Assembly (NCBI RefSeq): GCF_035084215.1
Contig: NC_090352.1
Span: 23,126,001 to 23,190,000, forward strand
Reading direction: 5' to 3'
Source: Heptranchias perlo
Taxonomy: Eukaryota
DNA: 64,000 nucleotides
Shown here one piece after another: positions 2,890 through 49,900 of this stretch; the first letter of the stretch is position 1, and every line of letters starts with the position of its first letter. Made by a program: the position numbers and the translations under genes. The notes under the pieces are model-generated. The model did not search any database, was not told the origin of the DNA, and saw nothing but the letters and a program-made list of their open reading frames with translations.

Positions 2890-3775
2890 CAATGATTTAT
2901 AAACCTCACTGTTTCGGCTCAATATTGACCTTTTTAATATATCCCAACATCTGAGTTGCTTTACTTACTGTCACCGAGTATTGTTGCAATTGCTTCAATT
3001 TATTGTCAACCAGATCTCTTTCCTTTTCCAGACTGATTATTTTCTTTCCATTTAAATAACAGTCCCTTCCTGTACTTTTGTCCCCATGTGAAGTACTTTG
3101 CATTTCTCTACATTGAATTTCATCTGCCATCTGTCTACTCAATTCCCAAGTATATTCAAATCCTCCTGTAGCCCATCCTGTTCTGCTTTGGATTCTACCG
3201 CCTTTGTTAGCTTTATGTCATCCGCAAATTTAGCCATTGTGCTTGTGTCTCCTAGCTCTAGATTATTTATAAAGGTATTAAACTAAAGAGGTCCCAAAAC
3301 AGATGACTGTGGGACCCCACTGTAACAATGTCCCAGGCTGATGACAATCCCTGTACGGCCACCTCTGGGTTCTATCAGTCAACTAATTGCGCATCAATTG
3401 TAAAATATTTCTACTGATTTTGGCTTTCTTTATTTTCAGTACCAGCCTTTCCAGAGAACTGTATCGAAGACCTAACTGAAATCCATGCACACCACATCCA
3501 TTACCTTATCCATATCAACCTTCTTTGCCAGACCCTCAAAGAAAATCAGTAAGTTAGATTGTCAAGACTTCCCCCTTCATGAACCTATATTGACATCTTT
3601 TATGATTTTATTTCAATCCAGATGCTCCATTATCTTATCTTTAATAAAGGTTTCCATAACTTTGCCCACAGCGGATGTCACACTCACTGGTCTGTAGCTT
3701 TATGGGTCACTTCTGCTACCTTTTTTAAAAATAGGAGTAACATCTGCCTTTCTCCAATCCCCAGAGATTGAAGGA
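2890..3775 (-). mobile_element. Decayed CR1 RT fragment
   Basis: Minus-strand motifs: YRPVSVTS-like near 3690, FADD at ~3217-3228, ERDL...MLGYIK (ORF 2906-3142). Confidence 0.75.
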
Positions 3776-9676: not shown

Positions 9677-11752
9677 CAGCTGATGAATCAGTCCTCCTCC
9701 ATGTTGAGTGCCACTTGGAGGAAGCACTGAGGGTAGCAAGGGCACAGAATGTACTCTGGGTGGGGGTCTTCAATGTCCATCACCAAGAGTGGCTTGGTAG
9801 CACCTCTACTGACCGAGCTGGCTGAGTCCTGAAGGACATAGCTGCCAGACTGCTAAACAGCGGAAGCAGCTTGCTATAGACAGAGCTAAGTGATCTCACA
9901 ACCAACGGATCAGATCAAAGCTTTGCAGTCCTGCCACATCCAGTCACGAATGGCGGTGGACAATTAAGCAACCAACGGGAGAAGGAGGCTCCATGAACAT
10001 CCCTATCCTCAATGGCAGAGCCCAGCATGTGAGTGCAAAAGACAAGGCTGAAGTGTTTGCAACCATCTTCAGCCTGAAGTGCCGAGTGGATGATCCATCT
10101 CGGCCTCCTCCCGAGATCCCCACCATCACAGAAGCCAGTCTTCAGCCAATTCGATTCATTCCACGTGATATCAAGAAACAGCTGAGTGCACTGGACACAG
10201 CAAAGGCTATGGGCCGCGACAACATCCCGGCTGTAGTACTGAAGACTTGTGCTCCAGAACTAGCTGCACCTCTAGCCAAGCTGTTCCAGTGCAGCTACAA
10301 CACTGGCATCTACCTGATAATGTGGAAAATTGCCCAGGTATGTCCTGTCCACAAAAAGCAGGACAAATCCAATCCGGCCAATTACCGCCCCATCAGTCTA
10401 CTCTCAATCATCAGCAAAGTGATGGAAGGTGTCGTCGACAGTGCTAGCAAGTGGCACTTACTCACTAATAACCTGGTCACCGATGCTCAGTTTGGGTTCC
10501 ATCAGGTCCACTCGGCTCCAGACCTATTACAGCCTTGGTCAAAACATGGACAAAAGAGCTGAATTCCAGAGCTGAGATGCGAGTGACTGCCCTTGACATC
10601 AAGGTAGTATTTGACCGAGTGTGGCATCAAGGAGCCCTAGTAAAATTGAAGTCAATGGGAATTGGGGGAAAACTCTCCATTGGCTGAAGTCATACCTAGC
10701 ACAAAGGAAGATGGTAGTGGTTGTTGGAAGCCAATCATCTCAGACCCAGGACATCGCTGCAGGAGTTCCTCAGGGCAGTGTCCTTGGCCCAACCATCTTC
10801 AGCTGCTTCATCAATGATCTTCCCTCCATCATAAGGTCAGAAGTGCGGATGTTTGCTGATGATTGCACATGGAATTCGCAGTTCCATTCGCAAACGCTCA
10901 GATAATGAAGCAGTCCGTGCCTGCATGCAGAAAGGCCTGGATAATGTCCGGGCTTGGGCTGATAAATGGCAAGTAACACTCGCGCCAGACAAGTGCCAGG
11001 CAATGACCATCTCCAACAAGAGAGGGTCTAACCACATCCCCTTAACATTCAACGGCATTACCATCGCGGCAACCCCACCATCAACATCCTGGGGGTCACC
11101 ATTGACCAAAAACTTAACTGGACCAGCCACATAAATACAGTGGCTACAAGAGCAGGTCAGGGGCTGGGTATTCTGTGGCGAGTGACTCACCACCTGACTC
11201 CCCAAAGCTTTTCCACCATCTACAAGGCACAAGTCAGGAGTGTGATGGAATACTCTCCACTTGCCTGGATGAGTGCAGCTCCAACAACACTCAAGAAGCT
11301 CGACACCATCCAGGATTAAGCAGCCCGCTTGATTGGACCCCATCCACCACCCTGAACATTCATTCCCTTCACCACCGGCGCACCGTGGCTGCAGTGTGTA
11401 CCATCCACAGGATGCACTGCAGCAACTCGTCAAGGCTTCTTCGACAGCACCTCCCAAATCCGGACCTCAACCATCTAGAAGGACAAGGGCATCACTTACA
11501 TGGGAACAACACCACCTGCACGTTCCTCTCCAAGTCACACTCCATCCTGACTTGGAAATATATCGCCGTTCCTTCATCATCGCCGGGTCAAAATCCTGGA
11601 ACTCCCTTCCTAACAGTACTGTGGGAGAACCTTCACCATACGGAATGCAGCGGGTCAAGAAGGCGGCTCACCACCAAGGGCAAGGGCAATTAAGGATGGG
11701 CAATAAATGCTAGTCTTGCCAGCGACATCCACATCCCATGAATGAATTAAAA
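9677..11752 (+). mobile_element. CR1/jockey-group LINE, partial EN + RT + 3' tail, internally deleted and frameshifted
   Basis: VLWVG.FNVHH (EN), NYRPISLLS, GVPQGSVLGP, MFADD; tail gggcaataaatgct...cacatcccatgaatgaat. Confidence 0.9.
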
Positions 11753-29365: not shown

Positions 29366-29736
29366 CATGGTTTTTGTGTTAACAATGTGCTTTGTTTCAC
29401 CATGGACCTCTAATTTTAAGCATTTTGTTCTTGAACTTTCGCTTCAGCATAGCGGTACTTTAAAATATCGCTTTGGAACTATATTCTCAGGCTAAATTGC
29501 TTATTCATTAATGAAGGAAAACAAACTCAGGGCTGCATTTCATAAATATATAAATCAGTTGCAATCCATGTTTAGCGCACAAGCTCAATAAATATTAATG
29601 TAACAATAATATTGGTCGGGGGAAAATGCCTTGCTGTCCAAACACTTATTTTATTACTCAATTAAGGTTTAAGATTTCAATGAAATTCCTAGAACATGCC
29701 ATTAAATATCTTACCCTTAAGAATTCCTTTAAGGTC

Positions 29737-30341
29737 TAGAATACAAAGAGGTGGAAGTTATGTTGCAGTTGTACAGAGCTCTGGTTTGACCCCATCTGGA
29801 GTACTGCATTCAGTTCTAGGCACTACATCTCAGGAAGGATATATTGGCCTTGGAGGGGGTAATGCGCAGATTCACCAGAATGATACTGGGGCTAAAATGG
29901 TTAAATAAAGAGGACAGGTTGCACAGACTAGGCTCATATTCTCATGAATATAGAAGATTAGGGTGATCTAATTGAGGTGTTTAAGATGATTAAAGGATTT
30001 GATAGGGTAGATAGAGAGAAACATTTCCTCTGGTGGGACAGTCCAGAACAAGGGGGCATAACCTTCAAATTAGAGCTAGGCCATTCAGGAGTGACGTCAG
30101 AGAGCACTGCTTCACACAAAGGGTAGTGGAAATCTGGAACTCTCTCCCCCAAAAAGCTGTTCAGGCTGGGGGTCAATTGAAAATTTCAAATCTGAGATTG
30201 ATAGATTTTTTTAGGGAAGGGTATTAAGGATTATGGAACCAAGGCGGGTAGATGGAGTTAAGATACAGATCAGCCATGATCTAATTGAATGGCAGAACAG
30301 GCTCGTGGGGCTGAATGGCCTACACCTGTTCCTATGTTCAT
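29737..30341 (+). mobile_element. CR1 3' fragment
   Basis: PHLEYCIQF, TRGHNLQIRARPFR...FTQRVVEIWNSLP; CR1 tail. Confidence 0.9.
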
Positions 30342-33504: not shown

Positions 33505-35572
33505 CTGCCTGTCTGATTTTCATTCCATTGGCTCAGTAGGATAGAAATCGGGCAGGTTCCACAGCAGGTGGGCAATCCACTCCACCAGATTACTGCCCAG
33601 GCGGTCACGGTGCAAATCACGCCCATAGATTCTGTGTGATGTACACTGCGGCTTAAGCTCTACATGTCATTTATTAATAAATTACCTGCAAAAGGTCCTT
33701 CTGCAGGAACTTATACAAGTCCGCAAATTACGTTGTACAATATTGCTGTGGAAACATCTCGTTTGTCTTCAACTTTAAGATGCCAACCCATTTATTTTAA
33801 GCTTAAAGTGTTTGTAAAGTAACATTACAGAGTGTGGTTTCCAAACTCTAATTGTAATTTTAAGAGGGTGTTTAATGTTCAACTTTTGATGACATCCCTT
33901 GGCCCCAAGCTTATTTTGAGAGGAGGCGAAAAATTGTGAAAGCTACTTTTTCCCTTCTTTTGTTTGTTTTCAACAGAAGAACCTGGATGTGTTTTATATA
34001 TCTAAAATATAATGAACAACATACAAGCGTAAAAAGGGCACAACGAAGCCCAATTTCGGGGACCAACGTCCCACATCCCAAAGGAACCTGAAAGTAGTCC
34101 GGCCTGATAATGGGTCCAGCCAATTTTCAGGTGACCCTGGAGGCCGATTAAACCAGTCATCAGGCTTCTTATATATGTAAATGAGGGGCCTAGGATCCTC
34201 TCTACTAAACTAGACATCGCAGAGGTGACCAGGAGCCATGCCTGCTGCACTTGGGATTCTTCCGTCACTAAAAGGTTAGGTTGTTAAAGAAGTTTTAAAA
34301 AAAAAAAATGTTCTTCTGGGGTCAGCAGACAGGAGTGCTCCCCCGACTCCGCAATATCCTGATTGCTCCCATTGTCTGTTGACCCACCCTTCCAGGATGA
34401 ACATTCTGGCCTTTGCCTGGTGAGGCAAGTGGCCCAAAATTCATCTTTTTAAAATGAGTGAGCTGCCTGTGGAAAGGCGACAGGTGCCGGTAGCTCACCC
34501 AGATAATGATAATGAGGCCCAAGGCCCAATTTCAAGCCGGTTTCAGGCCTGCGGTTAGGGAGCATGCTCCGTGCATGATGCCCATTTAAGGCCCAAAAAC
34601 CATTACAACAGTGACTACACTTCAGAAGTACTTAATTGGCTGTAAAACACTTTGGGACTTCATGAGGTTGTAAAAGGCGCTATATAGTCTTTTCCTTTCT
34701 CCTTTCCTGCGGAAATAAGAAATAGGGGCGTGGAGCTGGGAGGACATCAATGTTGCTTATAGCCTTTGTGCCATCTTGGATTACTGGAGTATGCAGGGTT
34801 TGGGGGAGGGAACGTAATTACCATGAGGCCGACAGGCATTCGCACCATTGTGGGCGCATCCCGAGCACTCACCTGCCCCAAGTTCTCCGAAAATCTGGCT
34901 TCTGCGGCCAAGTCCGGGGAATGTCAGGGACTCCCTGGAAACAATGTAGATCAGCTCCAAGTGGGGGCCCACAGCAACCATAGGAAAATAACTATCTTGC
35001 CAGAAATCTTCAGATGCCCAGGCTGATTCCAAAGCCTTCAAAGTTACACTGGGTGTGTGCGAGGCCAAGAGCCGAGGAACTCCCAGAGTAGAGATTCCCA
35101 CCTCGAGCCCCAACCCCATCTGACATGGGTGCCCTTGCACAATAGATGAAAAATCTAGAGTAGGAAGACTAGAAAAGACCCAAAAACACAACAACAATTC
35201 GAGTACTGATCTATCACTCATTGCAGATTGCATTGTCTCCAGGTTGAGAGGGAAAACAAAAAATCAGAAATCAGTCGAGTTTTCCAATCCTAATTGCTAA
35301 TCTAGTGGCCCTGTAGAAAAGTGCATGAACATCAGATAAAGACAGAATTGAGCTTGGCTGTGAAGCTCCCACTATCACCAAGGAAGAGGTAAGTGATTGG
35401 CTGGTGAGTATTTTCCTGCTGAATTTGTCTAAGGTTAGAGTTTGTGGATTCTCTGGTCTCTGTTGTGTAGTGGGGGACTGCTGTTCAGCAAGGGCCCTTG
35501 AGTATACCTTTTTAATTGAAGTGAAATTGGTGGGATTCATTTAATTTGAATTAATTAGTTAAAGGGTAAGTC

Positions 35573-36523
35573 ATGTCAGGACAGCCCAGCCCCGTGTTAT
35601 GCTCTTCCTGTTCTATGTGGGAAATCAGGGACCCTTCTGGTGTCCCTGACGACCATGTGTGCGGGAAATGTATCCAGCTGCAGCTACTGACAAACCGCAT
35701 TGCGGCACTGGAGCTGCGGATGGATTCATTAAGGAGCATTCGCGATGCTGAGAACGTCGTGGATAGCACGTTTAGTGAGATGGTCACACCGCAGGTAAAG
35801 GTTGTACAGGCAGGAAGTAATTGGGTGACCACCAGGCAGAGTAAGAAGAGCAGGCAGGCAGTGCAGGGGTCCCCTGTGGCCGTCCCCCTCTCAAACAAAT
35901 ATACCGCTTTGGATATTGTTGAGGGGGATGACTTATCAGGGGAAGGCAGCAGCAGCCAACTTCCTGGCACCAGGGGTAGCTCTGCTGCACAGGCTGGGAG
36001 GAAAAAGAGTGGAAGAGCTATAGTGGTTGGGGATTCTATCGTAAGGGGAACAGACAGGCGTTTCTGTGGCCGTAAACGTGACTCCAGGATGGTTTGTTGC
36101 CTCCCTGGTGCCAGGGTCATGGATGTCACTGAGCGGCTACAGGGCATTCTCAAGGGGGAGGGTGAGCAGGCAGAGGTCGTGGTCCACATTGGGACCAACG
36201 ACATAGGTAGGAAGGGAGATGAGGTCCTGCATCAAGAATTTAGGGAGCTAGGTAGCAGATTAAAGAGCAGGACCTCAAAGGTTGTAATCTCTGGATTACT
36301 CCCAGTGCCACGGGCTAGTGAGTATAGAAATAGGAGGATAGAACAGATGAATGCGTGGCTAAAGAGTTGGTGCAGGAGGGAGGGTTTCAGTTTCCTGGAT
36401 CACTGGGCCTGCTTCTGGGGAAGGTGGGACTTGTACAAGTCGGACGGGTTGCACCTGAACCAGAGCGGGACAAATATCCTTGCGGGGAGGTTTGCAAGCA
36501 CTGTTGGGGGGGGTTTAAACTAA
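35573..36523 (+). CDS. CR1 ORF1p: N-terminal CxxC..CxxC zinc finger, coiled coil, SGNH esterase domain
   Basis: CSSC...CGKC; VVGDSIVR, VHIGTND, DGLHLN blocks; uninterrupted 316 aa. Confidence 0.9.
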   Translation: MSGQPSPVLCSSCSMWEIRDPSGVPDDHVCGKCIQLQLLTNRIAALELRMDSLRSIRDAENVVDSTFSEMVTPQVKVVQAGSNWVTTRQSKKSRQAVQGSPVAVPLSNKYTALDIVEGDDLSGEGSSSQLPGTRGSSAAQAGRKKSGRAIVVGDSIVRGTDRRFCGRKRDSRMVCCLPGARVMDVTERLQGILKGEGEQAEVVVHIGTNDIGRKGDEVLHQEFRELGSRLKSRTSKVVISGLLPVPRASEYRNRRIEQMNAWLKSWCRREGFSFLDHWACFWGRWDLYKSDGLHLNQSGTNILAGRFASTVGGGLN

Positions 36524-39070
36524 CTTGGCAGGGGGATGGGATACAGAGTGGAGCTACAATAGGGGGTGATGTGCAGCCAAATATAGAGAAAAAAACAAGT
36601 CAGCTTGGAAGACAGGGCAAATATGTGAGGGCAAGGCTGGATGGCATCTATTTTAATGCAAGGAGTCTTGCGAATAAGGTGGATGAACTGAAGGTGTTGA
36701 TAAACACATGGGAGTATGATATTGTTGCTGTCACAGAGACATGGTTGAGGGAGGGGCAAGACTGGCAGCTCAATATTCCGGGGTACAGAATCTTCAGGCG
36801 AGACAGAGGGGGAGGTATAAGAGGAGGGGGGGTCGCAATATTAATTAAAGAATCAGTTACTGCCATAAGGAGGGATGATATATTAGCAGGTTCCTCTAAT
36901 GAGGCCATATGGGTGGAGCTTAAAAACAAAAAGGGGGCAAGCACTTTGATGGGAGTGTACTATAGGCCCCCAAACAGTCAGGGGGAGATAGAGGAACAGA
37001 TATGTAGGCAAATCTCAGGAAATTGTGCAAATAATAGGGTAATAATAGTGGGGGATTTCAACTTCCCCAATATTAACTGGGATACTCAGAGTGTAAAAGG
37101 CTTAGAGGGTACAAAATTCTTAACGTGCATCCAGGAGAGCTTTTTGAGCCAGCATGTAGAAAGTCCTACAAGAGAGGGGGCGGTACTGGACCTAATTCTA
37201 GGGAATGTGGCCGGCCAAGTGGAAGAAGTGCTAGTAGGTGAGCACTTTGGTGAGAGTGACCATAATTCGGTGAGATTTAAGGTGGTCATGGAAAAGGACA
37301 CGGAGGGGCCGGAAATAAAGGTTCTAAATTGGGGGAAGGCCGATTTTAATAGGATAAGGCAGGATCTGGCCAAAATGGACTGGGATCAGCTGCTTGTAGG
37401 AAAATCCGCATCGGAGCAATGGGAGTCTTTCAGGAGGGAGATTGAGACCATACAATGGCAACATGTTCCCGTAAAGGTCAAGGGTGGTTCCAAGAACTCC
37501 AGGGAACCTTGGATGTCAGGGGATATACGAGAATGGATTAGGAAAAAAAGGAGGGCTTTTGGCAGATATAAAAGGCTAAAGACGGAGGAAGCCCTAGAGG
37601 AGTACAAAAAGTGCAGGGGGATACTTAAAAAAGAAATTAGGAGATCAAGGAGGGGCCATGAAATAACACTGGCGAGCAAAATAAAGGAAAATCCTAAGAT
37701 GTTTTATAAGTATATTAAGGGTAAGAGGATGACTAGGGAAAAAATAGGGCCCATTAGGGACAAAAATGGCAATCTGTGTGTGGAGCCGACAGATGTAGGA
37801 GGGGTTCTAAATGAATTTTTTGCATCTGTTTTCACTATGGAGAAGGACGATGTAGACATAGAAATACGGCAGGGGGACTGTGATATACTCGAACATATTA
37901 ACATCGAGCGGGAGGAGGTATTGGCGGTTTTAGCAGGCCTAAAAATGGATAAATCCCCAGGCCCGGACGAAATGTATCCCAGGCTACTGTGTGAGGCAAA
38001 GGAGGAGATTGCGGGGGCTCTGACACATATATTCAGAACCTCTCTGGCCACAGGGGATGTGCCAGAGGACTGGAGAACCGCTAATGTAATACCATTATTC
38101 AAGAAGGGGAGTAGGGAAAAACCGGGGAACTACAGGCCAGTGAGCCTAACATCAGTGGTAGGAAAATTATTGGAAAAAATTCTGAAGGACAAAATTAGTC
38201 TCCACTTGGAGAAGCAAGGATTAATCAGGGATAGTCAACATGGCTTTGTCAAGGGAAGATCATGTCTGACTAATTTGATTGAATTTTTTGAGGGGGTGAC
38301 TAGGCGTGTGGATGAGGGTAACGCAGTGGATGTGGTATACATGGATTTCAGTAAGGCCTTCGATAAAGTCCCCCACAGGAGACTGGTCAAGAAGGTACGA
38401 GCCCATGGAATCCAGGGTGCCTTGGCACTTTGGATACAAAACTGGCTTAGTGGCAGAAGGCAGAGGGTGATGGTCGAAGGTTGTTTTTGTGACTGGAAGC
38501 CTGTGGCCAGTGGGGTACCACAGGGATCGGTGCTGCGTCCCTTGCTGTTTGTGTTCTACATTAATGACTTGGATATGAATGTAAAAGGTATGATCAGTAA
38601 GTTCGCTGATGATACAAAAATTGGTAGGGTGGTAAATAGCGAGGAGGATAGCCTCAGTCTGCAGGACGATATAGATGGGTTGGTCAGATGGGCGGAACAG
38701 TGACAAATGGAATTTAACCCGGAAAAGTGCGAGGTGATGCACTTTGGAGGGACTAACAAGGCAAGGGAATACACAATGAATGGGAGGACCCTAGGCAAGA
38801 CAGAGGGTCAGAGGGATCTTGGTGTGCAAGTTCACAGATCCCTGAAGGCGGCGGAACAGGTAGATAAGGTGGTAAAGAAGGCATATGGGATACTTGCCTT
38901 TATTAGCCGAGGCATAGAATATAAGAGCAAGGAGGTTATGATGGAGCTGTATAAAACACTGGTTAGGCCACAGCTGGAGTACTGTGTGCAGTTCTGGTCG
39001 CCACACTACAGGAAGGATGTGATCGCTTTGGAGAGGGTGCAGAGGAGATTCACCAGGATGTTACCAGGGC
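36514..39070 (+). pseudogene. CR1 ORF2 (APE endonuclease + reverse transcriptase), one nonsense codon, C-terminus missing
   Basis: NARSL, VTETWL, YRPP, GDFN, SDH (EN); NYRPVSLTS, DFSKAFDKV, GVPQGSVL, FADD (RT); TGA at 38701-38703 where W is expected (WAEQ*QMEFN). Confidence 0.9.
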
Positions 39071-48554: not shown

Positions 48555-49900
48555 CAATGGATAGGAAAGGACCAGTCAGTCCATTGAGCCTGTCCTATAC
48601 TGTAATGGCTTAACATCGCACACCATCACCCCCACACCGAGCCATGCAATCTCCTGGGAGAGCCAAAATAAAATGAGAAAAAATCTCAGAGCAATTTAGG
48701 AAAAAAACTCTAGGAAATTCCTCTACAACCCCAAAGAAAAAGACAATCAAACAAGTTCCAGGAGACCACAGTGACTGGGAGATACATCATCCTGTACCTA
48801 TCTACCTTCTAGACTTGTTATGTTGGGCAGACCTAGAAACGCATCCAGGTCCATTTTGAATGCTTGCAGTGAATCTGCACTCGCTACACATGCTTGTTCC
48901 AGGAGTTGATGAATCATAGAATCATAGAATCATAGAAGTTACAACATGGAAACAGGCCCTTCGGCCCAACATGTCCATGTCGCCCAGTTTATACCACTAA
49001 GCTAGTCCCAATTGCCTGCACTTGGCCCATATCCCTCGATACCCATCTTCCCCATGTAACTGTCCAAATGCTTTTTAAAAGACAAAATTGTACCCGCCTC
49101 TACTACTGCCTCTGGCAGCTCGTTCCAGACACTCACCACCCTTTGAGTGAAAAAATTGCCCCTCTGGATCCTTTTGTATCTCTCCCCTCTCACCTTAAAT
49201 CTGTGCCCCCTCGTTATAGACTCCCCTACCTTTGGGAAAAGATTTTGACTATCGACCTTATCTATGCCCCTCATTATTTTATAGACTTCTATAAGATCAC
49301 CCCTTAACCTCCTACTCTCCAGGGAATAAAGTCCCAGTCTGTCTAACCTCTCCCTGTAAGTCAAACCATCAAGTCCCGGTAGCATCCTAGTAAATCTTTT
49401 CTGCACTCTTTCTAGTTTAATAATATCCTTTCTATAATAGGGTGACCAGAACTGTACACAGTACTCCAAGTGTGGCCTCACCAATGCCCTGTACAACTTC
49501 AACAAGACATCCCAACTCCTGCATTCAATGTTCTGACCAATGAAACCAAGCATGCTGAATGCCTTCTTCTCTGTGAAAAGAAATACCTCCTGGTATCTAA
49601 CCTATACTTAACTTGTACTCGTGCCTCTGGTCCCCCCTAAGCTACGTAATTCAAAATAACTTATCCACATGGACCAAATCTAATCATTTTATTATTTTAA
49701 AGCCCTTGGTCAAATCTCAGTGAATTCTATGCTTTTCTATAGAAAGCCCCAGCTTTCTAAGCCCATCGTGGTGACTGAAAGCTCTTAAACAAAGCAACAA
49801 TCCAGTGGTTCCCCCTATGAACTCTTCCAGGGCCTCTACATCATCCACCATGTTGAGGGGACCAAAACTGGACACAGCATTCTAGATGAGGCCGAATCAA
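48555..49900 (-). mobile_element. Old CR1 3' region, host of a nested CR1
   Basis: Minus strand RPHLECCVQFWSP (~49855-49895); terminus matches 290-500. Confidence 0.7.
48912..49569 (-). mobile_element. Young 5'-truncated CR1 with intact RT C-terminal ORF and (TATGATTC)n tail
   Basis: ORF 49002-49553 open (LYRALVRPHLEYCVQFWSP...WNELP); aatcatag repeats at 48912-48937. Confidence 0.92.

Follow-up and report, generated by a model that had tools for sequence, protein, structure and literature searches.

The stretch of DNA analyzed here, referred to as the window, comprises 64,000 nucleotides (nt) of the Heptranchias perlo genome (assembly GCF_035084215.1, contig NC_090352.1, positions 23,126,001 to 23,190,000). 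At positions 35573-39070 of its forward strand lies a vertebrate CR1 long interspersed nuclear element (LINE) of the esterase type, placed through its ORF1 matches and the likeness of its junction only. The element contains two open reading frames (ORF1 and ORF2; Table 1), which meet at a conserved seven-base sequence, and our analysis suggests that ORF2 is expressed there through programmed −1 ribosomal frameshifting. The best matches to ORF1 come from sawshark, rays and skate, and the ORF1 family profile matches the solved ORF1 esterase PDB 4c1b (E 1e-43). ORF2 carries the domains PF03372, PF14529 and PF00078, and its profile also matches L1 ORF2p; its frame is open from 36334 to 38703 and is −1 relative to ORF1. 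The copy is dead: a TGA at 38701 interrupts the reverse transcriptase, the ORF2 match ends at about 39070 and the 3′ end is absent.

ORF1 terminates in GGT TTA AAC TAA. As the preliminary description of this locus had noted from the letters alone, these bases contain a slippery heptamer of the X_XXY_YYZ type, T_TTA_AAC, in the ORF1 frame and directly ahead of the stop codon, and ORF2 is open across this point in the −1 frame (TTT AAA CTA ACT TGG). From the heptamer to the endonuclease no stop codon occurs in the −1 frame, against four and three in the other two frames, and an open stretch of equal length arises in about 5% of shuffled sequences. The first in-frame ATG of ORF2 is found at 36949, 145 codons past the heptamer and within the STLMGVYYRPP motif of the endonuclease, and it is preceded by 12 out-of-frame ATGs; the GTG at 36355 and the downstream G-runs (36531-35, 36538-40, 36550-51, 36562-66) are likewise present as described. 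The invariant endonuclease Asn and Glu align to N14 and E43 of human L1, which we take to be catalytic residues. Since the ATG at 36949 lies past both of them, a product begun there would miss Asn and Glu alike. ORF2 is an open −1 frame without a start of its own in the window copy and in the form that it represents, although some sister forms carry an AUG. The heptamer in a single copy is weak, only modest evidence: the window contains TTTAAAC 16 times when both strands are counted, and the chance of encountering it, given a Leu-Asn end and the element's own codon use, is about 0.013. The weight of the argument rests on the relatives. Within 36506-36520, a run of eight G also creates a second in-phase heptamer, G_GGT_TTA (36511-36517), which overlaps T_TTA_AAC one codon earlier; positions 36510 and 36511 are variable among relatives.

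Table 1. Features of the CR1 copy, in coordinates of the window.
Feature	Position	Strand	Basis
CR1 5′ untranslated region (UTR)	35380..35572 (start approximate)	+	Sequence; GGTAAGT/GGTGAGT splice-donor-like motifs; by eye resembles the 5′ end of consensus SquAca_CR1-11
ORF1, 316 aa: Cys-rich N-terminus, long helix, SGNH esterase, end Gly-Leu-Asn-stop	35573..36523	+	Pfam PF13472 (E 5e-16); profile against PDB 4c1b; structure model
Slippery heptamer T_TTA_AAC in ORF1 phase	36514..36520	+	Sequence; conserved in relatives
ORF1 stop TAA, adjoining the heptamer; TAA, TAG or TGA in relatives; Leu codon in the −1 frame	36521..36523	+	Sequence
G-rich motif GGGGGATGGG, candidate stimulator; first base 10 nt past the heptamer; includes an out-of-frame ATG at 36536	36531..36540	+	Sequence, relatives
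Variable linker, open in the −1 frame only; without in-frame ATG in the window form	36541..36654	+	Sequence
APE endonuclease; invariant Asn (36655) and Glu (36736)	36655..37320 (end approximate)	+	Pfam, alignment
Remainder of ORF2 including reverse transcriptase; premature TGA at 38701; 3′ part missing	37321..39070	+	Pfam, sequence

Papers are cited here by their PMC accession and from extracts, to which all statements about them refer. The consensus library of PMC13343379 contains about 1,000 rows, of which the first 400 letters each were covered. TTTAAAC followed by a stop codon is matched 23 times in it, and 18 of these matches lie, as judged by eye, at the end of an ORF1. The 18 junctions come from 12 species (halosaur, bowfin, coelacanth, bullfrog, bearded dragon, alligator, crocodile, elephant shark, stingray, sawfish, catshark and dogfish), with TAA in 6, TAG in 11 and TGA in 1 of them. 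As this search had asked for the heptamer itself, the downstream G motif was used as an independent anchor, and the heptamer was present in all seven complete CR1 junction rows found in this way; an eighth row ends inside it. Conservation of the heptamer and of the −1 phase, the check that the preliminary description had proposed, is borne out. Six variant patterns with changes of the first base or AAT matched 22 places, none of them a junction; five other spellings of Leu-Asn-stop with other Leu codons gave no CR1 junction among the 20 of 47 places listed, and G_GGA_AAC plus stop occurred at no ORF1 end among the consensus rows listed. In row ScyCan_CR1-1a the −1 frame runs, by eye, from the heptamer to the endonuclease without a break; gaps prevent such a reading in several other rows. 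Two dogfish rows (SquAca_CR1-18 and SquAca_CR1-3) have TTTAAAC plus stop and then a G-rich stretch also within their 5′ UTR.

Contigs from four sequencing runs were aligned to the window (14, 116, 52 and 10 contigs). No variant with a frequency of at least 1% was listed in any of them for positions 36512-36543, the variant rows of a further comparison agree with conservation of the heptamer in all 40 that were listed out of 72, and depth is highest over 36510-36540, an island to which diverged contigs align exclusively. Collectively, these comparisons indicate that the heptamer and the −1 phase are conserved at the nucleotide level, far beyond what a Leu-Asn end requires. Microbial and metagenomic collections yielded nothing further: a metagenome scan with one protein gave 0 vertebrate CR1 loci, a scan with the ORF1 alignment A1 gave 46 loci with no close vertebrate CR1 junction, vertebrate CR1 was found 0 times in viral contigs in three scans and 0 times in plasmids, prokaryote genomes gave one unrelated match and phages one esterase only.

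The protein ends of ORF1 relatives were compared as well. A Leu-Asn-stop end is found in 86/120 ORF1 homologues, from sharks to a hummingbird, and most of the others look truncated or mis-modelled. From a pooled set of 254 proteins we kept the 168 that carry a DxxH anchor and terminate 20-45 residues past it, and dropped the other 86; Asn is the last residue in 139 of those kept (124 Leu-Asn, 10 Gly-Asn, 1 Lys-Asn and 4 other). T_TTA_AAC requires that the preceding codon ends in T, which excludes the residues E, Q, K, M and W at that place, and indeed these precede Leu-Asn in 3/124 proteins, versus 50/124 and 41/124 at the two positions further upstream. The residue ahead of Gly-Asn is Gln in nine of ten cases and Ser in the tenth, which matches the requirement of G_GGA_AAC, whereas Leu-Asn ends are never preceded by Gln; one ORF1 ends in Ser-Lys-Asn and is compatible with A_AAA_AAC. 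These Gln-Gly-Asn and Ser-Lys-Asn ends fit the pattern predicted if one of these two heptamers had replaced T_TTA_AAC. A later set of 116 anchored cluster members gave 96 Leu-Asn, 10 Gln-Gly-Asn and 2 Ser-Lys-Asn ends, and 8 others. In a tree of the esterase core, calculated with the last residues left out and from 74/165 sequences after thinning, the Gly-Asn and Lys-Asn ends fall into one clade, which also holds a Phe-Leu-Asn end, and Ser-Gly-Asn is sister to Ser-Lys-Asn; judged by this tree, the Leu/Gly/Lys pattern reflects a few switches and not ten independent events, so that a Fisher value calculated for the covariation should not be read as a probability.

Slipped copies and gene models provide a view of the −1 reading itself. 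In four of them, P0038 (ray), P0083, P0265 (turtle) and P0435 (frog), Phe-Lys-Leu stands exactly at the position of Leu-Asn, a reading that fixes the same bases and the same phase; P0038 extends 108 codons into the endonuclease. The N-termini of ORF2 homologues mostly correspond to the gene caller's first Met, and Phe-Lys-Leu is found in 1/120 of them. No longer, fused ORF1-ORF2 protein was present among 10 matches, a weak test that covered 859-2450 aa only. The Atlas look-alikes are chordate esterase clusters. A sub-clade within the Gln-Gly-Asn group (P0323, P0373, P0334, P0358 and P0283) ends in Phe-Phe or Gly-Phe, ends that might conceal T-rich heptamers such as G_GGU_UUU. Two shark-type CR1 proteins (P0008 and P0121) are filed as Pseudomonas aeruginosa and Carnobacterium maltaromaticum on 3-4 kb contigs and likely represent host contamination of bacterial assemblies.

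The heptamer, its adjacent stop codon, the open −1 frame, the lack of a usable AUG in this copy and the conservation at the nucleotide level are established by these data. We consider it probable, at roughly 70%, that ORF2 of esterase-type CR1 elements is produced by programmed −1 frameshifting as an ORF1-ORF2 fusion; comparison of the relatives supports the proposal of the preliminary description that the endonuclease and reverse transcriptase are made as an esterase fusion in this way and not by reinitiation. Ribosomes would initiate by scanning at ORF1. Most would terminate at the codon that follows U_UUA_AAC and set ORF1p free; the others, a minority, would slip by −1 on the heptamer with the help of the neighbouring stop codon and of the G motif 10 nt downstream, and continue into ORF1-linker-endonuclease-reverse transcriptase. 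The slip, its rate, the fusion protein and the stimulatory role of the G motif are what we infer. Such an arrangement might serve to keep a fixed low ratio of ORF2 to ORF1 product and to tether the reverse transcriptase to the ORF1 particle, much as Gag-Pol does. Whatever its mode of action, the junction signal is real and very old. Sharks and bony vertebrates separated more than 400 million years ago.

For the downstream part of the signal, a linear G-rich motif would be a better candidate than a fold. Ahead of the conserved GGG the codon specifies Gln, Pro, Leu or Arg in the consensus rows, and its third G is retained despite the change of residue, which points to a constraint at the nucleotide level. 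We hold the stimulatory role of this motif to be less probable than the frameshift itself. A UGGGA was also considered as an element resembling a termination upstream ribosomal binding site (TURBS), a motif of reinitiation; it was rejected, as it lies downstream of the stop codon and is not retained in crocodilians or chimaera.

Several observations weigh against frameshifting. The expected fold is one of them, as neither a pseudoknot nor a hairpin was found: the RNA of 36521-36620, which the preliminary description had proposed to fold, folds no better than its shuffles (z +0.76; +0.45 to +0.87 for five lengths), a two-tier G-quadruplex brings no gain (−12.6 versus a shuffle mean of −12.5), and no Rfam match was found downstream. 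Long-range pairing gave no clear win either, the best duplex (−23.1, with an upstream site at 35875) comparing with shuffled best values of −14.8 to −22.9 from a coarser scan. These calculations covered hairpins and not direct pseudoknot models, and they were made on a decayed copy. Since no 3′ RNA structure was found 5-9 nt downstream, as in coronaviruses and retroviruses, we do not assign the site to the classic pseudoknot type. The G motif itself is uneven: of the 18 consensus rows, which are visibly gappy, 9 have a run of at least four G located 9-10 nt downstream, 5 have one at another distance and 4 have none. Among the proteins, 29/168 anchored ORF1 ends are not Asn, mostly in separate clades, and 7/139 Asn ends break the heptamer rule; the signal is not universal among esterase LINEs. 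The Gly-Asn and Lys-Asn ends are known from protein alone, and the counts are not independent, given the kinship of the relatives. In the runs, the heptamer of one contig carries an additional A, 1/18 listed substitutions past the heptamer creates a −1-frame stop, and read alignment favours well-matched stretches, which makes the contig evidence supporting and not decisive. Start codons complete the list: 3/18 consensus junctions contain a TAATG whose AUG is in frame with ORF2, an overlap that gives the same −1 phase; a Met, variably placed, precedes the endonuclease in many ORF2 relatives; a sister form in runs X14 and X15 (loose ends, 28 and 20 contigs) has a linker that is 15 nt longer and carries an in-frame AUG with RxxATGG context, which corresponds to window position 36628 and lies seven codons ahead of the endonuclease motif; and ORF2 of L1 is reported to tolerate the loss of its AUG (PMC1965478).

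These start codons speak for the main rival, termination-reinitiation or non-AUG initiation, according to which ribosomes restart at or near the ORF1 stop (through UAAUG, as in SART1, or independently of an AUG, as in L1) or at an AUG in the linker, with the conserved bases acting as the restart signal. SART1 does translate its ORF2 via UAAUG (PMC3894237). We regard this as a serious alternative, yet a clearly less probable one. The window has TAACT and not UAAUG; where the sister form has its AUG, the window form has ACT. Its ORF2 frame offers no AUG over 145 codons, and an out-of-frame AUG in strong context follows 13 nt past the ORF1 stop. This AUG-less form is likely a real subfamily, since it recurs complete in another organism (X12 record 9, two differences), although it may still have been copied in trans; contig depth is continuous in run X1 and shows a dip in X14 and X15. 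An AUG upstream of the endonuclease, which the preliminary description had named as evidence against its proposal, thus exists in the sister form and in the three UAAUG junctions, but neither the linker AUGs nor those overlapping the stop are conserved, whereas the heptamer is. The seven bases in front of the variable stop are fixed although the codon at the overlap is free to change, and reinitiation neither explains these fixed bases nor predicts the covariation of the Leu, Gly and Lys ends.

Alternatively, the conservation might reflect constraint on protein (the Leu-Asn tail of ORF1 and Gly-Asp-Gly of ORF2) or another RNA or DNA element, for instance a binding site of ORF1p or ORF2p, without any recoding. 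Leu315 and Asn316 are invariant in alignment A1, whose members were chosen by hand, and the missing stimulator structure would suit this explanation, which we nevertheless judge improbable. Protein constraint would leave synonymous freedom, and none is used: the sole spelling encountered is TTA AAC preceded by T, even though TTA accounts for 13/82 Leu codons in the element, and the third G ahead of GGG stays constant while its residue varies. The ORF1 tail is moreover predicted to be disordered. In the structure model residues 314-316 lie past the last helix with a pLDDT below 50 (termini often score low), and the solved zebrafish-type esterase aligns only up to profile position 316/320, so that a structural need for the Leu-Asn tail is not evident. 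A binding site, in turn, would have no need of phase.

Least probable is that ORF2 is translated from a spliced RNA, whose branch point would be CTAAC (36520-24) and whose acceptor CAG|G (36529-31), with donors in the 5′ UTR: such motifs are present in the window copy (donor-like ones at about 35389, 35404 and 35566), but crocodilians and chimaera have CCG, TTG or AGG instead of CAG, the base past the stop is variable, no joint and no loose end at 36531 is among those listed in the four runs (whose origin from RNA is a guess), and splicing from the UTR provides no AUG.

A bolder version of the frameshifting hypothesis is tentative, and we are inclined to doubt it. It would extend the frameshifted ORF1-ORF2 fusion across the esterase CR1 elements of jawed vertebrates and to relatives beyond, with the heptamer swapped among U_UUA_AAC, G_GGA_AAC and A_AAA_AAC, a linear G-rich stimulator that is recognized either by rRNA or by a protein (a G-tract binder of the host, or ORF1p in a feedback), sister lineages that use a single in-frame stop, and recoding into a fusion as the general rule for esterase LINEs. 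In distant LINEs with an esterase ORF1, this ORF and that of the endonuclease lie in the same frame with one stop between them (TAG in the L004 family, which comprises L004:1589, L006:2966, L041 and L037; TGA in L001:1827 and in L042 at about 2820). This could represent stop readthrough, the other solution known from gag-pol, and ordinary initiation is also possible; a Met stands 4 residues ahead of the endonuclease Asn in the L004 family and 68 ahead in L001.

The remainder of the window adds no second ORF1/ORF2 junction. Further fragments of LINE ORF2, all without an ORF1 junction, lie at 3082-3759 (−), 10050-11334 (+), 13860-14084 (+), 15013-16702 (+), 29733-29891 (+) and 49374-49568 (−). 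A 3′ UTR bearing a short terminal repeat is a feature of CR1 elements. The copy studied here has kept its 5′ UTR and lost its 3′ end (at about 39070), the opposite of the usual 5′ truncation, which is likely due to a later deletion. Its 5′ UTR contains three splice-donor-like motifs (35389-35412, 35566-35572), the last of which adjoins the ORF1 ATG; similar motifs are visible in the 5′ ends of other shark CR1 consensus rows.

The CR1 group is the dominant retrotransposon in most vertebrate species (PMC13343379), and the translation of ORF2 in two-ORF LINEs has been called an open question (PMC3894237), which the conserved 30-nt cassette makes testable by one reporter assay. If frameshifting is correct, ORF2p of CR1 bears the esterase ORF1p at its N-terminus, which would change the annotation of CR1 ORF2, the design of active CR1 constructs and the view of how the reverse transcriptase enters the particle, and would add a very old cellular frameshift signal, possibly with a new kind of stimulator. 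No frameshift proposal for CR1 was found in the extracts of the literature on CR1 and LINE translation, among them PMC13343379, PMC4120745, PMC2734521, PMC3905857, PMC11835228 and PMC5009743, a coverage that excludes Repbase and the CR1 papers of 1997-2003 (Haas 1997; Kajikawa 1997; Kapitonov and Jurka 2003), where an earlier proposal may have its home. Recoding in non-LTR elements (those without long terminal repeats) as such is not new, because it is reported for TRE5-A and TRE3-A of Dictyostelium (PMC5911963), and a +1 shift, reinitiation or readthrough was suggested for Paramecium LINEs (PMC5405496).

Closest to the element in the window are the canonical vertebrate CR1 elements with an esterase ORF1 described by Stuart et al. 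(2026; PMC13343379), which likewise combine an esterase ORF1, an APE-reverse transcriptase ORF2 and the junction motif; the nearest row, by eye, is SquAca_CR1-11, and the extract of the main text speaks of no frameshift, slippery site, overlap, start codon or translation. SART1 (PMC3894237) and L1 (PMC1965478) are also two-ORF LINEs that make ORF2p from a bicistronic RNA, and UAAUG gives the same −1 phase; unlike SART1, the window copy and 15/18 consensus junctions have no AUG at the stop. For mammalian LINE ORF2 unusual initiation is favoured in PMC5009743, the part covered of which leaves CR1 unmentioned. TRE5-A and TRE3-A are APE-type non-LTR elements for which a −1 frameshift is said to be needed for ORF2 (PMC5911963); they differ from CR1 in clade, in their amoebal host and in an unrelated ORF1, and we liken them to CR1 without a comparison of shift sites. 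The viral systems resemble CR1 in layout: in the coronavirus IBV and the arteriviruses (1a/1b; both with U_UUA_AAC, which the preliminary description had rightly recognized as the coronavirus slippery site) and in retroviral gag-pol, a structural protein lies upstream and the polymerase in the −1 frame (PMC5009743). U_UUA_AAC, G_GGA_AAC and A_AAA_AAC, the three heptamers compatible with the ORF1 ends, are among the most shifty on mammalian ribosomes (PMC5009743). Where these viral sites have a stem-loop or pseudoknot at 5-9 nt, none was found at the CR1 site. Perhaps more akin in this respect are the protein-stimulated sites of arteriviruses (nsp1beta with PCBP) and cardioviruses, whose elements, possibly linear, lie farther away than usual, at 11-14 nt, such distant stimulators being tied to trans-acting factors (PMC5009743), versus 10 nt in the window copy; the CR1 motif is G-rich, unlike theirs, and a trans-acting factor that reads it is hypothetical.

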